Assembly: GCA_017536505.1 (NCBI GenBank)
Contig: JAFXHG010000027.1
Span: forward strand, 89,286 to 153,285
DNA from: Bacilli bacterium
GTDB lineage: Bacteria; Bacillota_I; Bacilli_A; RF39; UBA660
Length of the DNA stretch: 64,000 bases
Direction: 5' to 3'
Shown here: one piece after another, positions 40,896 through 60,006 of the stretch
How positions within the stretch are numbered: the stretch's first letter is position 1
Layout: every line of letters starts with the position of its first letter
Program-made: the position numbers and the translations under genes
Notes under the pieces: model-generated
What the model was told of the DNA's origin: nothing
Seen by the model: the letters and a program-made list of their open reading frames with translations, nothing else
Databases searched by the model: none

Positions 40896-41495
40896 ATGGA
40901 ATATAAAGATTTTAATGACTATGAACTTTTAAATTATATAGCAGAAAATAATGAAGATGCTAATAATATAATTATTAAGAAGTATGAACCATTAATAAAT
41001 AAAATCGCTACAAAAATGCTTCCATATTGTAAAAATAATGGACTAGAAAAAAGTGATTTAGTTCAAGAAGGTATGATAGGTTTAAACCATGCAATAGAAA
41101 GATATCATGAACAAAAAGATGTATTATTTTATACATATGCTAAAAAATGTATAGAAAGAAAAATAATAAGTGTTGTAGTAGCATCTAATAGAAATAAAAA
41201 TAAAATATTAAACGAATCTATATCTTACGATGATGATGAAAATTTATTACTTAGATTTATAAAATCAGAAACACCTAGTCCAGAAGAAGAAATGTTAAAT
41301 ATAGAATTAGAAGAAGATTTGTTACAAAAAATAAAAGAAAAATTAACAGACTTAGAAGAACAAGTATTTAATCTTTTAATATCAGGATTTAAATATAAAG
41401 AAATAGCAGAAATATTAGATAAAGATGGTAAGTCTATAGATAATGCTATACAAAGAATTAAAGTAAAAATAAAAAACATGTTAAATGAAGATTGA
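40896..41495 (+). CDS. sigH: SigH-like alternative sigma factor
   Basis: DLVQEGMIGL, YKEIA, KSIDNAIQRIK; canonical position after mrnC-rlmB. Confidence 0.85.
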   Translation: MEYKDFNDYELLNYIAENNEDANNIIIKKYEPLINKIATKMLPYCKNNGLEKSDLVQEGMIGLNHAIERYHEQKDVLFYTYAKKCIERKIISVVVASNRNKNKILNESISYDDDENLLLRFIKSETPSPEEEMLNIELEEDLLQKIKEKLTDLEEQVFNLLISGFKYKEIAEILDKDGKSIDNAIQRIKVKIKNMLNED

Positions 41496-55930: not shown

Positions 55931-56473
55931 ATGAGCTTTTTAGAAGAAATAAAATTGAGTTTAAAAAGCAATCCTAATTTAACTGATGAAATAAGAAATA
56001 AACTGTTTGAATTAGTAGTTAACTTTAATAGAAAGTTACCAGAAATAGATCTATCAAAATTGAATAATAAATTAAAAACAGTTAAAATAGGAAAAATAAG
56101 TAAATTTGAAAGAAAAGGAACATATTATTACGACGTATTTAAAAATGCAATATTGTTTTCTAAAGATTTAGAAGAGGACTATGATGTAGATCATTTACTT
56201 ACAAAAGCTATACTTCAAATGAGTACTAGTACAGAAACATTTACAGGTTTCAATTCTGATGATAGGTTAAGAGCGCTTAATCTAGCTTATACAGAAATAC
56301 TTGCTAATTACATAATTGGGAATGAAGGGGATTCTGATTTAGAAGAAGAAATGTTAGTTACTAATCTTTTAAGTCATATTGTTGGCAAAGATACTATGTT
56401 TAATTCATATTTTACAAATAATGGAGAACCTATTATAAAAGCTATGCAAGATGCGGAGGTTGGATTAATATGA
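55931..56473 (+). CDS. Hypothetical protein, possibly a degenerate zincin fold
   Basis: HLLTKAILQM...ALNLAYTEILA resembles HExxH...LNEGxTE with ligands lost. Confidence 0.55.
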   Translation: MSFLEEIKLSLKSNPNLTDEIRNKLFELVVNFNRKLPEIDLSKLNNKLKTVKIGKISKFERKGTYYYDVFKNAILFSKDLEEDYDVDHLLTKAILQMSTSTETFTGFNSDDRLRALNLAYTEILANYIIGNEGDSDLEEEMLVTNLLSHIVGKDTMFNSYFTNNGEPIIKAMQDAEVGLI

Positions 56474-56856
56474 CAAGTATAGTAAATTTTGAAGAAAGAA
56501 TGAAAAGTGCTGGAACTCTAACAAATGAATTTTTTGATTCACTAAACAGATTACATGATGCAAAATTAACTGGAGCTTTAAAAAAAGATGAATATTCTAA
56601 ATTGTTAATTTTGGAAGATAAATTTTTTGCTAACTTAGTTAGAAAAGGTTTAAAAACAGAAGAAGATGTACAAACATATGAGACAGATATGGCAACAGGT
56701 AAAACTCCAATAGGTAATTATCCTCATGAAGATTTATCTTTAGCATTCAATACTGTTAAACAAACTAATACTGCCGCATTATTTGATGCAGAAACACTAA
56801 ATAGAAAAACTGAAATAGCAGATAGCTATTCAAAAGGTTTAAAAAAAGTAAGTTAA
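56470..56856 (+). CDS. Hypothetical protein
   Basis: Overlaps the upstream gene (ATGA coupling); GGAGG SD. Confidence 0.65.
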   Translation: MTSIVNFEERMKSAGTLTNEFFDSLNRLHDAKLTGALKKDEYSKLLILEDKFFANLVRKGLKTEEDVQTYETDMATGKTPIGNYPHEDLSLAFNTVKQTNTAALFDAETLNRKTEIADSYSKGLKKVS

Positions 56857-56952
56857 AGTTATGAAATTCATAACTTTTTTCTTGACTAAAAAAAATATAT
56901 ATACTACAATTAATTTGTAGAAAAGAAGATATAAATCGGATTGGAGGTTTAT

Positions 56953-57210
56953 ATGAAAAAAGATTTAGAGTTAGTTAAATTTAATCTAACTCCAAGTATG
57001 TCTTTAGAACTTATTAAATTTAATAAAATAAAAAAAGAAATAAATAAGTTAAAAGAACTTTACAATCTAGATAAAAACGAAGAACTGCTATTAAAAATAA
57101 ATGATTTAGAAAGAGAACTTATAAATTGTAGAAATACATTTATTAGAGAGTTTAGACTTAATAATCAAGATGAAATAACTACATATTTGCAAATAAAAGA
57201 TAAGTTTTAA
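56953..57210 (+). CDS. Hypothetical small coiled-coil protein
   Basis: GGAGG SD; TTGACT...TACAAT promoter upstream. Confidence 0.65.
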   Translation: MKKDLELVKFNLTPSMSLELIKFNKIKKEINKLKELYNLDKNEELLLKINDLERELINCRNTFIREFRLNNQDEITTYLQIKDKF

Positions 57211-57242: not shown

Positions 57243-58622
57243 CTATCTTTTTTTTGTTAACATATATGCTTTCTCAGTCTTTGTTGGTCTAGTTAAATGA
57301 ATGTTAGAGTAATCACCTGCAAAAATTCTAAACATAGCACTACTAATAACATCATCAAAAATAGCTTTTAAACTTCTAGCTCCACTTTCTAATTCAATTG
57401 CTTTTTCTGCTATATAATCTATAAAATCATCATCATAGGTAAATTCAATTCCCATTACCTCAAATAAGTATTTATATGTATTTATTGGACTAAAGTTTGA
57501 TTCGAGTAATATTCTCTTTATGTCTTCTTTACTTAAGTTATTCATAGCAACTAATTTTGAAAATCTACCCATAAGTTCTCTCATAATACCATACTCAACA
57601 AAATCTTTTGTAGTTATATTAGTATAATCATCATTTTTTACCATTTCAGTAAAAGCACCTAGTGATACAATTGATAATTTAGACGTATTAAATGTTAATC
57701 CATCAAAATAATATTCTGTACCATCTAATAACTTCAAAAGAGATCTTTGAACTCCTTCTCTAGATACATGACTACGAGTAGTATCTTTTTCAGCTAATTT
57801 ATCAAATTCATCAATAACAAGAATACCTTTTTCAGCAGATTCCATATTTTTTCCAGAAGCTAAATATAAATTATTTAACATATCAGTAATTTTTCTACCA
57901 ATAAACCCTGATTCTGTTAAGGAAGTGGCATCCTCTATAACAATAGGAACTTTATATATTTTTGCTATTCTTTTTAATATCTCTGTTTTACCAGTTCCTG
58001 TTGAACCATAAACAATTATGTTTTCTTTTAATTTGTTAATCATATCAATATCAAAATTAGAATTAACTACTTTTTGATTTTTAAATAGTGTAGTTAGTAT
58101 TTTCATAATTTGTTCATCTTGAGAAATAATAGTTTTTTTAATCTCGTTATAAATTTGTGATATATCTGAATCTTTATTTAAAACATTTTCATCAAACTCT
58201 TTTTGCTTTTCTTTTGTACTTTCAATAATTTTTAGTATTTTTTCTTCTTTAATTAAGTCATATCGATCTTCAATTTCATTATAGAAATAAACAGTTCCTA
58301 TGATTTTTTTTCGTTGAGACATAAATTTATCTATATCCATTGTATTATTATTTTCTTCACATAATTTACTAAAAGTCTTAAAACCAGCGGCTAAAAATTT
58401 TTTATTAGGATCATATATTAAAGGAAGTTCGCTTCCAAGATTTTTAGATAATGAAGTAAAAAGAAAGGAGCCATCTTTGTATTCATATGCAAATCCACAC
58501 ACACAGTCAACAATTTCATAGTATGTTTTTACTTTATCATCTGTTTGGATTTGTTTTTTTTTCATTATACAAGCTATTCCTATATTTTTTAGATTATGTT
58601 TATCAACATTATCATATTTCAT
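57243..58622 (-). CDS. ClpX/HslU-like AAA+ ATPase with atypical N-terminus
   Basis: ISQDE, GSTGTGKT, DATSLTESGFIG, IDEFDK, GVQRSLLK, GRF, GARSL. Confidence 0.85.
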   Translation of the reverse strand: MKYDNVDKHNLKNIGIACIMKKKQIQTDDKVKTYYEIVDCVCGFAYEYKDGSFLFTSLSKNLGSELPLIYDPNKKFLAAGFKTFSKLCEENNNTMDIDKFMSQRKKIIGTVYFYNEIEDRYDLIKEEKILKIIESTKEKQKEFDENVLNKDSDISQIYNEIKKTIISQDEQIMKILTTLFKNQKVVNSNFDIDMINKLKENIIVYGSTGTGKTEILKRIAKIYKVPIVIEDATSLTESGFIGRKITDMLNNLYLASGKNMESAEKGILVIDEFDKLAEKDTTRSHVSREGVQRSLLKLLDGTEYYFDGLTFNTSKLSIVSLGAFTEMVKNDDYTNITTKDFVEYGIMRELMGRFSKLVAMNNLSKEDIKRILLESNFSPINTYKYLFEVMGIEFTYDDDFIDYIAEKAIELESGARSLKAIFDDVISSAMFRIFAGDYSNIHLTRPTKTEKAYMLTKKR

Positions 58623-58701
58623 TCTAATCACTCCAGTTGTCTTATATTATAGCACACTTCCCATTAAAATTAAGAAAAAACTTAATTTTTTTTCTTGAAA
58701 A

Positions 58702-58767
58702 AAAGGAAATAGAAAAGTTTTGTAGAATAATATATATGAGGGAAAAAGATATTCTACTTTTGTCGAA
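58702..58767 (+). promoter_or_regulatory. SigH-type promoter and Spo0A box upstream of spoIIAA
   Basis: AAAGGAAAT-11-GTAGAATAA matches the B. subtilis SigH consensus; TGTCGAA at 58761-58767. Confidence 0.7.
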
Positions 58768-58818
58768 AGTGTATAATTTGAGATTAATGTGTGCTAAATT
58801 AAATAGGAAGGTGAATAT

Positions 58819-59166
58819 ATGCTAAATGTAGGAACTGAATTCAGAAAAGGAATATTATTTGTAAGACTAAAAGGTCATTTAAATAAAGATACTATAAATA
58901 AACTAAATAAAAGAGTTACTAAAGTAGTTAAAGATAATGGGATAAGAAATATAGTATTTAACTTTACTAATTTAAAATCAATAGATATAAAAGGAATTAA
59001 TACTATATTTTATAATTATGAACTATGTAAAAACAATGAAGGTAGAAGTCTTATGTGTGGCAATAATGATAACATAAGGGGAAAACTTAAAAGAAGTAGG
59101 TTAGTTAATTATATATATGAAACAACAGATGAATTAAGTGCATTAAAAATACTAAATTTAAGGTGA
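58819..59166 (+). CDS. spoIIAA: SpoIIAA-like STAS anti-anti-sigma factor (phospho-Ser absent)
   Basis: LFVRLKGHL, NIVFNFTNLKSIDIKG STAS pattern; directly upstream of sigF. Confidence 0.75.
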   Translation: MLNVGTEFRKGILFVRLKGHLNKDTINKLNKRVTKVVKDNGIRNIVFNFTNLKSIDIKGINTIFYNYELCKNNEGRSLMCGNNDNIRGKLKRSRLVNYIYETTDELSALKILNLR

Positions 59167-59170
59167 TAAT

Positions 59171-59827
59171 ATGGATGAAATAACTAATTTAATAATAAAT
59201 AATGAAAGACTAATATATAGTATTGCTAATTATTTTAAAAATTATCAATCAAAAGAAGATTTATATCAAGCGGGATGCTTAGGGCTTGTTACTGCATATA
59301 AAAAGTATGATCCTAGTATAAACTGTAAATTTACAACATATGCATATCCATATATATTAGGTGAAATGAGAAAATTAGTTAGAGAAGATAAAGGATTAAA
59401 AATAAGTAGAGAAATAACTAAACTAAACTTAAAAATAGAAAAAGCTTATGTATTACTATCTCAAAAATTAATGAAGGAGCCAAGTGTAGAAGAAATTGCT
59501 CATTTTCTAGAAATACCTGAATTTTATGTATCAGAAGCAATACTTAGTTTAAATAAAATAAAAAGTATTGATGAACCAGTAAGTAATGAAGGTAGAGAAT
59601 TTACTTTACAAGATGTAATAGGTAAAAGTGAAAATATAGATGAACTTATTATGTTAAAAGAATTATTGCAAGGATTAAATAATGAGGAAAAAGAAATAAT
59701 TAAGAATAGATACATTAAAGATTATACTCAAAGTGAAACTTCTAAGATAATAGGAATAAGTCAAGTACAAGTATCTAGAAAAGAACAAAAAGTATTACAA
59801 AAACTTAAACAAAAAATGATAGTATAA
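59171..59827 (+). CDS. sigF: Sporulation sigma factor F-like
   Basis: DLYQAGCLGL, FTTYAYPYILGE, DKGLKISR (SigF-type), TQSE, ISQVQVSR. Confidence 0.8.
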   Translation: MDEITNLIINNERLIYSIANYFKNYQSKEDLYQAGCLGLVTAYKKYDPSINCKFTTYAYPYILGEMRKLVREDKGLKISREITKLNLKIEKAYVLLSQKLMKEPSVEEIAHFLEIPEFYVSEAILSLNKIKSIDEPVSNEGREFTLQDVIGKSENIDELIMLKELLQGLNNEEKEIIKNRYIKDYTQSETSKIIGISQVQVSRKEQKVLQKLKQKMIV

Positions 59828-59915: not shown

Positions 59916-60006
59916 GGAGTAGTACTCAAGAGGCTGAAGAGGCGCCCCTGCTAAGGGTGTAGACCGGGCAACTGGTGCGAGGGTTCAAATCCCTCCTGCT
60001 CCGCCA
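59916..60006 (+). tRNA. tRNA-Ser(GCT)
   Basis: GGAGTAG/CTGCTCC acceptor stem, CGCCC-CTGCTAA-GGGTG anticodon arm, long variable arm, GGTTCAAATCC, encoded CCA. Confidence 0.97.

Follow-up and report, generated by a model that had tools for sequence, protein, structure and literature searches.

A STAS–sigF operon without SpoIIAB in the order RF39: a lineage-wide variant of the forespore sigma-F switch

The locus and its two genes

The SpoIIE–SpoIIAA–SpoIIAB–sigma-F switch is the textbook account of how differential gene expression is established in the two daughters of an asymmetric division. In Bacillus and Clostridium, the operon concerned is spoIIAA–spoIIAB–sigF, with SpoIIAB phosphorylating SpoIIAA at Ser58 and SpoIIE reversing the modification. 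Here we describe a counterpart of this operon, a STAS gene followed directly by sigF, in a metagenome-assembled genome (MAG) of the order RF39, an uncultured lineage of gut Bacilli with reduced genomes (GenBank assembly GCA_017536505.1; 1.19 Mb, 25% G+C, 38 contigs, rated 90% complete). The window, that is, the whole stretch of DNA that was analyzed, is 64 kb long and sits in contig C22 of this assembly. Comparisons within the order drew on 38 genomes (27 from the same genus, 10 from other genera of the family, and 1 from a second family), and the family searches for kinase, phosphatase, and STAS genes covered the genome itself and 60 relatives, sister families of the same class included. All genomes compared are MAGs.

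The first gene (58819-59166, + strand) encodes a SpoIIAA-derived STAS protein of 115 amino acids (aa; Pfam STAS, 52 bits), and the second (59171-59827, + strand) a sigma-F orthologue of 218 aa with Pfam sigma-70 regions r2, r3, and r4. The two are separated by 4 nucleotides (nt), TAAT, and the Shine–Dalgarno sequence of sigF, read from the sequence as AAGGTGA (59160-59166, + strand), overlaps the STAS stop codon TGA. No gene can fit into such a junction, as an earlier reading of the DNA letters alone (hereafter, the sequence-only reading) had noted with regard to spoIIAB, and the placement of the Shine–Dalgarno over the stop codon would make the two genes translationally coupled. Relatives share a comparably short junction of 4-10 nt; across the first 28 order loci inspected, the sigma gene lies within a few bases of STAS in all except genus G027, with the STAS reading frame of G035 being degenerate. 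In G027 (locus L099, G027:C28:17600-21200), a metK gene of 388 aa is inserted between STAS and sigF, so that coupling of their translation is not obligatory.

The best NCBIfam model for the STAS protein is spoIIAA (TIGR02886), at 51 bits and well under the cut-off of 114.75. A canonical operon from the outgroup G042, a genome of a sister family, provides a point of comparison: its SpoIIAA (113 aa, with the motif FMDSSG) clears the same cut-off at 118 bits and is followed by a SpoIIAB of 146 aa (191 bits), a SigF of 236 aa (197 bits), and then spoVAC–spoVAD. Among PDB structures, the nearest to the STAS protein are SpoIIAA 1TID and 1TH8 (E ~5e-12), with 1AUZ also recovered, these being from Geobacillus and Bacillus. 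An AlphaFold2 model of the protein (predicted local distance difference test, pLDDT, 95.7; predicted template modelling score, pTM, 0.88) has as its top fold match 1THN_B, the SpoIIAA from a SpoIIAB complex, with a template modelling (TM) score of 0.93 and a root-mean-square deviation of 1.4 Å. The single-domain fold of SpoIIAA is thus predicted to be intact in the STAS protein, but its switch chemistry is not.

The sigma protein matches the SigB/F/G model at 187 bits, and its best equivalog is spore_sigF (171 bits), followed by SigG (141) and SigB (128); in the PDB, it matches the sigma-F of a SpoIIAB complex (1L0O_C) at 128 bits, with the next match at 98. Its score against the sigma-F equivalog TIGR02885 falls below the cut-off of 321, but so does that of the canonical G042 sigma-F, encoded with SpoIIAB, and the cut-off is therefore set too high for members of the class in this region of the tree. 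The protein is also short at its N-terminus, with residue 7 aligning with residue 33 of Geobacillus sigma-F (1L0O), or approximately 26 residues fewer. The sequence-only reading had listed this short form among the features of a rewired switch; the shortening is real, but it is unlinked to kinase loss, because the sigma-F proteins of G041 and G056, where SpoIIAB is kept, are likewise short (217-223 aa).

Absence of SpoIIAB and SpoIIE across the order

The genome contains one STAS gene. Searches of the same genome for a SpoIIAB/RsbW-type kinase with TIGR01925 and PF13581 returned matches only within six histidine kinases of 433-868 aa, and tblastn with the G042 SpoIIAB as query returned only one weak match, to a histidine kinase. 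No SpoIIE-type PP2C domain (PF07228) was matched in this genome, even at E <= 10. The same holds across the order, where a small HATPase_c_2 protein and a SpoIIE domain (PF07228) were each found in none of the 38 genomes. There is at most one STAS gene per order genome, sited beside sigF, and STAS is likewise missing from the four genus members without sigF (69-92% complete), such that the pair is either co-present or co-absent. Six genomes of sister families (G041, G042, G045, G054, G056, and G059) encode a small kinase as well as a SpoIIE-type protein of 698-781 aa, and a seventh, G050, encodes a kinase and a 395-aa PF07228 protein; the small kinases of the sister families are 140-155 aa long. 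A search of this kind through the genome and its sisters for spoIIAB, spoIIE, and STAS genes had been proposed by the sequence-only reading as a check on its own claim, and it returned an order without kinase and phosphatase beside sister families with the full set.

Other explanations deserve consideration at this point. A canonical spoIIAA–spoIIAB pair might be hidden elsewhere in the genome, a local misassembly might have removed spoIIAB, or sigma-F might be subject to proteolysis by the ClpX-like ATPase encoded nearby; each of these had been raised alongside the original observation. A MAG that is 90% complete leaves space for a missing pair, and the ATPase gene does lie only 187 nt upstream of STAS. 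However, with one STAS gene, no kinase or SpoIIE domain in 38 genomes, and complete sets in the sister families, a misassembly or a second SpoIIAA/SpoIIAB pair is excluded as far as MAGs allow. The kinase-less junction recurs, moreover, in assemblies made independently of one another, their samples coming from goat, roe deer, rabbit, mouse, and human, and no relative examined carries the ATPase gene next to the operon, where this genome alone has it. We regard this set of explanations as largely refuted, with a negligible probability remaining to it.

The gene loss is not new in itself. A 2024 survey (Field, Bowerman, and Hugenholtz, Microb Genom; PMC10868615) already reports that order RF39 has lost spoIIAB and spoIIE, and predicts sporulation with markedly different regulation. 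The gene pattern that it gives matches the present genome, and takes the form of a presence/absence table only; the retained serine-less STAS gene, the selection acting on it, the operon junction, the promoter, and a mechanism do not figure in the passages of the survey examined. Partner-switch genes are otherwise listed in every spore-former (PMC3533761; 10.1101/2022.02.25.481979). What the present analysis adds to the published gene loss is the anatomy of the operon, an analysis of selection, and the promoter.

Descent of the operon and remodelling of the STAS protein

Both gene neighborhoods and phylogeny bear on the origin of the two genes. Elsewhere in the order, dacF lies upstream of STAS (G030, G037) and spoVAC–spoVAD lie downstream of sigF (G031, G034, G035, G036, G037). 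The maximum-likelihood tree recovers the kinase-less sigmas as one group (81/84), sister to the canonical G042 sigma-F (87/86), and places the SigG proteins of these genomes in a separate clade (99/99). The kinase-less distribution is explained by a single change of state. On this evidence, the operon is the spoIIA operon by descent, with spoIIAB having been deleted once, at the base of the order.

The site of phosphorylation has been altered as well. A gap-free phmmer alignment to 1TH8, 1TID, and 1AUZ places residues S54-I55-D56-I57-K58-G59 opposite FMDSSG, upholding the SIDIKG substitution seen in the sequence-only reading: Ile57 replaces the phospho-serine (Ser58 of B. subtilis), and Lys58 replaces the second serine. 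The serine is missing in all STAS orthologues of the order: the genus and its nearer relatives have I, V, L, M, or F at this position, and the more divergent genera (G030, G034, G037, and G036) have M, K, E, or T. With SpoIIAB, SpoIIE, and the acceptor serine all gone, phosphorylation- and ADP/ATP-driven partner exchange cannot occur. This is a lineage-wide variant of the textbook system, and the textbook forespore switch cannot work here as described. The suggestion that sigma-F is controlled here in a phosphorylation-independent manner, likewise made from the sequence alone, gains weight accordingly from the absence of kinase, phosphatase, and acceptor serine in this genome and in 37 others of the order.

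A comparison of nine canonical SpoIIAA with thirty kinase-less STAS sequences indicates that the changes extend beyond the phospho-site. Eleven positions are conserved within each group and different between them: D22N, F54S, M55I, S58K, G61N, G65Y, R66N, G94R, K97N, and I98Y, with the eleventh being the phospho-serine itself (S57, replaced by a hydrophobic residue). These positions fall into three segments, namely the GELD loop, the P-loop with helix alpha-2 (FMDSSGLGVILGRY becoming SIDIKGINTIFYNY), and the SGL segment (MSGLFKI becoming RSRLVNY), which together we take to be the SpoIIAB-contacting face in the 1TH8 structure. Reconstruction of a face, followed by its conservation, speaks for a new interaction partner and not for decay. 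Pairwise ratios of nonsynonymous to synonymous substitution (dN/dS) within the genus are 0.12 for STAS and 0.21 for sigF, at a dS of ~0.9. Judged by these ratios, the STAS gene is under stronger purifying selection than sigF, and it is not a relic.

Promoter architecture

Two candidate control elements lie within the 120 nt 5′ of the STAS start codon: a SigH-type promoter-like element, P1 (AAAGGAAAT-N11-GTAGAAT; 58702-58728, + strand), and a Spo0A box, TTTGTCGAA (58759-58767, + strand), with the core TGTCGAA at 58761-58767. Both had been recognized in the sequence-only reading, and both are kept in relatives. P1 is the sole match in the window to the pattern RNAGGAWWW-N11-RNNGAAT (a B. subtilis consensus), for which 0.35 matches are expected by chance, and TTTGTCGAA likewise has one occurrence in the window, with 0.20 expected. 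The full P1 pattern is found in 13 of 23 same-genus operons, and the AAAGGA core in most of the remainder; P1 is not conserved outside the genus.

A third element, P2, resembles an extended -10 (TGTGC-TAAATT; 58790-58800, + strand) and lies 27 nt 3′ of the 0A box and 18 nt 5′ of the ATG. The combination of a TGTCGA(A/T) box, a spacer of 26-27 nt, and TRTGn-TAAATT recurs in 27 of the 33 operons aligned, those of other genera and the canonical G042 operon included, and the distance from the extended -10 to the start codon is 17-22 nt across the aligned operons. Five of the remaining six keep the upstream TGTCGAA box, while L098 carries TTTTGTCGC. The geometry of these elements suggests that the 0A box, at about -40, and the extended -10 constitute an ancestral Spo0A~P-dependent promoter of the sigma-A type, and that the SigH-type promoter may be a genus-specific addition upstream of it. 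An alternative candidate, an autoregulatory promoter of the forespore type with TGTATAA (58770-58776) serving as its -35, was rejected: the -10, CTAAATT, is a poor match to the GTATA-N17/18-CATTATA element that precedes spoIIR and sspI, and conservation of TGTATAA is confined to the genus. The same -35 is also found upstream of spoIIR. The reading as 0A-box-N27-TRTGnTAAATT is preferred because it is conserved across genera.

The Shine–Dalgarno region of STAS, AGGAAGGTGA (58805-58814, + strand), belongs to a leader with almost no variation within the genus. The block TGTGCTAAATTAAATAGGAAGGTGAATATATG (58790-58821) is near-identical in all genus members, with synonymous sites nearby close to saturation (dS ~0.9). 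Such conservation seems to exceed the needs of a -10 and a Shine–Dalgarno sequence, and an element of translational or RNA-level control is possible.

Transcriptional control of this kind could conceivably suffice. Sigma-F may have no post-translational regulator, with its activity simply following Spo0A-dependent transcription, and the STAS gene may be kept for an unrelated role or for the sigF ribosome-binding site in its 3′ end. The conserved architecture of the Spo0A box and promoter would fit this explanation, as would the sigF Shine–Dalgarno overlapping the STAS stop codon and the persistence of sigF both where metK splits the pair (G027) and where STAS is degenerate (G035). Yet a dN/dS of 0.12 over all 115 codons, indicating stronger constraint than on sigF, is not explicable by a 3′ ribosome-binding site, and the confidence with which the STAS fold is predicted (pLDDT 95.7) also counts against this explanation. 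Further, in B. subtilis mutants of spoIIAB, sigma-F without restraint is toxic and prevents sporulation. We consider it improbable that sigma-F goes without a post-translational regulator.

Sporulation gene content

By gene content, the lineage still appears to be a spore-former. Spo0A (272 bits) and SspI (72 bits) score above their cut-offs, SpoVAC is present, and SpoIVA is full length (696 bits) and intact in nearly all genomes. SpoIIR scores 135 bits in this genome and was also found in 34 of 36 other genomes of the family. The genome further encodes a SpoIIGA–SigE operon, SigK with a pro-sequence, YqfD, and a SigH-like sigma of 199 aa, which lies in the window at ~40896-41492 (+ strand) and scores 115 bits, under all SigH cut-offs. 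Two further SigA-like sigmas are present in the genome (~343 and ~372 aa, as open-frame lengths), with their location given as C17:35495-36550.

The core sporulation set (Galperin 2012, 2022) is incomplete here, with spoIIAB and spoIIE absent and SigG found in relatives only. A tblastn search of the assembly with the SigG of a relative returned only SigF, at 38% identity; sigG is found in nearly all relatives in the genus, downstream of ftsA–ftsZ, and its absence from this assembly therefore probably reflects the missing 10%. An element of the form GTATA-N17/18-CA(A/T)TAT(A/C) lies 14-19 nt 5′ of the start codons of spoIIR, sspI, and the genes for a 209-aa membrane protein and a 145-aa protein (C17:18582, C3 (-), C28 (-), and C30 (-) in this genome; L100-L114 in relatives). 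This forespore-type promoter-like element follows a B. subtilis consensus; across the genus it is retained ahead of spoIIR, and it is not enriched genome-wide, with 23 matches compared to 7-27 in shuffled sequences. The 209-aa protein has no NCBIfam match and presumably resembles YetF/DUF421 proteins; the 145-aa protein has no family match. A similar element, TGTTTA-N17-CAnAAT, precedes sigG in four relatives.

This inventory bears on the possibility that sporulation is being lost in the lineage, and that the STAS–sigF pair is a decaying relic without working regulation. Genomes of ~1.2 Mb from which many sporulation genes have been lost, as the RF39 survey describes (PMC10868615), would be in keeping with such a process, as would the absence of STAS, sigF, SpoIIR, and SpoIVA from G033 and of STAS and sigF from the four genomes of the genus mentioned above. 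Those four genomes, however, are only 69-92% complete, SpoIVA is found at ~696 bits nearly throughout, and SpoIIR occurs in 35 of 37 genomes of the family, this one included. The purifying selection on both genes and the conservation of promoter and leader likewise run counter to decay, and we regard ongoing loss as very improbable.

How sigma-F may be controlled

The explanation that we hold to be the best overall, and on balance probable, is that sigma-F is timed by Spo0A and handled by the STAS protein without phosphorylation, following the loss of spoIIAB at the base of the order. Sigma-F would be timed mainly through Spo0A~P-dependent transcription, to which the SigH-type promoter would add in the genus; after translation, it would be handled through stoichiometric, phosphorylation-free binding by the remodelled STAS protein. 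The likeliest target of that protein may be sigma-F itself, bound one-to-one, in which case the STAS protein would act as a minimal anti-sigma or holding factor and a partner switch of three or four proteins would have shrunk to a module of two. This more specific proposal, of a STAS protein that itself binds and regulates sigma-F in a phosphorylation-free, two-protein module under Spo0A, with forespore specificity achieved without septum-bound dephosphorylation, is one we advance only tentatively, as a possibility that is open to considerable doubt. Forespore specificity could then come from differential stability or dilution of the STAS protein, or from a drop in Spo0A~P in the forespore.

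Several observations weigh against this account, in its general or its specific form. The STAS gene is degenerate in G035 (105 aa, no Pfam match) and truncated in G034 (95 aa), where sigF persists, and STAS may therefore not be indispensable. The sample consists of MAGs only, and the genome in question is 90% complete and lacks the sigG that its relatives have. To our knowledge, no member of the lineage has been seen to sporulate. A search of 5.8 billion proteins with a concatenated STAS and sigF query yielded 2737 matches and a single in-frame fusion (P0121, L123:1377-2300), which was rejected as evidence of binding: it stems from an 85-nt deletion at a GCTA microhomology on a single contig of 2.4x coverage that is otherwise 100% identical to G017, and its probable origin is an error of assembly or a rare variant. 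AlphaFold2 applied to this fusion, with a block alignment, gave a pTM of 0.48 and no defined inter-domain arrangement. A read-through fusion of the window genes themselves is impossible because their frames differ by +1. In the literature, we found neither a cultured RF39 isolate nor a precedent for direct binding of a sigma factor by a STAS protein.

The main rival to direct binding is that the STAS protein still acts as an anti-anti-sigma, with an unrecognized, non-kinase anti-sigma-F encoded elsewhere as its partner and governed by a ligand, redox state, or proteolysis. The remodelling and subsequent conservation of the former SpoIIAB-binding face would fit any new protein partner, and not sigma-F alone, and STAS proteins with non-kinase partners exist elsewhere, with MlaB–MlaF structures among the fold matches recovered here. 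In Pseudomonas, the HsbA–FlgM pair is a further instance of a STAS protein with a non-kinase partner. However, STAS and sigF are the only genes conserved at the locus across genera, no candidate anti-sigma was found, the small genes upstream occur in the genus only, and STAS is gained or lost strictly with sigF. We therefore consider a concealed anti-sigma rather unlikely.

Comparison with known systems helps to define what is retained under a Spo0A-timed, phosphorylation-free module and what is not. With the spoIIA operons of Bacillus subtilis, Geobacillus stearothermophilus, and the Clostridia (1TH8, 1TID, 1L0O), the RF39 operon shares gene order and neighbors, dacF and spoVA being present in relatives, as well as Spo0A control, the SpoIIAA fold (TM 0.93), a sigma that is nearest to sigma-F, and the SpoIIR–SpoIIGA–SigE pathway. 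It differs from them in having no SpoIIAB, no SpoIIE, an isoleucine for the acceptor serine, and a remodelled version of the face that formerly bound the kinase. The M. tuberculosis RsfA/RsfB–UsfX system (8IH8 is among the fold matches) and MlaB–MlaF offer examples of single-domain STAS proteins that act by protein binding rather than through phosphorylation of their own; RsfA is controlled by redox state. Both of these systems retain a separate anti-sigma or ATPase partner, whereas here none is detectable and the STAS gene abuts the sigma gene.

An order that is abundant in animal and human guts, and that keeps the remaining cascade and a STAS protein without kinase, phosphatase, or phospho-site, represents a natural experiment on two questions: how little machinery forespore-specific activity of sigma-F requires, and of what a STAS domain is capable once its kinase is gone. 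It also bears on the genome-based prediction of which gut bacteria transmit as spores.

Neighboring genes

The ClpX/HslU-like AAA+ ATPase (57243-58631, - strand) is a protein of 462 aa, of which the N-terminal ~140 aa form a novel domain; its score against the ClpX model is 189 bits, compared to a cut-off of 359, and PADLOC gave only weak matches, to DolB and IetA. Its gene lies on the opposite strand from the operon, inserted between an 89-aa gene and the STAS promoter. In the closest relatives, with sigma-F proteins 90-92% identical, the promoter directly follows the 89-aa gene, and the ATPase gene is a strain-specific insertion. It was rejected as an operon partner because it is not syntenic in any relative; a separate match in the genome (C36:127153-128085), which shares 26.7% identity with this protein, is taken as the ordinary clpX.

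Further upstream, three small genes of 180, 128, and 89 aa (55931-57210, + strand) have no Pfam or PADLOC match. Most members of the genus carry them directly 5′ of the STAS promoter, and nearly all have the 89-aa gene, which encodes a coiled coil, in that position. As a replacement anti-sigma they were rejected, since they are confined to the genus and the loss of the kinase is order-wide. On the other side of the operon, a gene for transfer RNA (tRNA-Ser, GCT; 59916-60006, + strand) lies directly 3′ of sigF and is followed by genes for a VanZ-like and a PAP2 membrane protein; in other genera, the position of the tRNA-Ser gene downstream of sigF is held by spoVAC–spoVAD.

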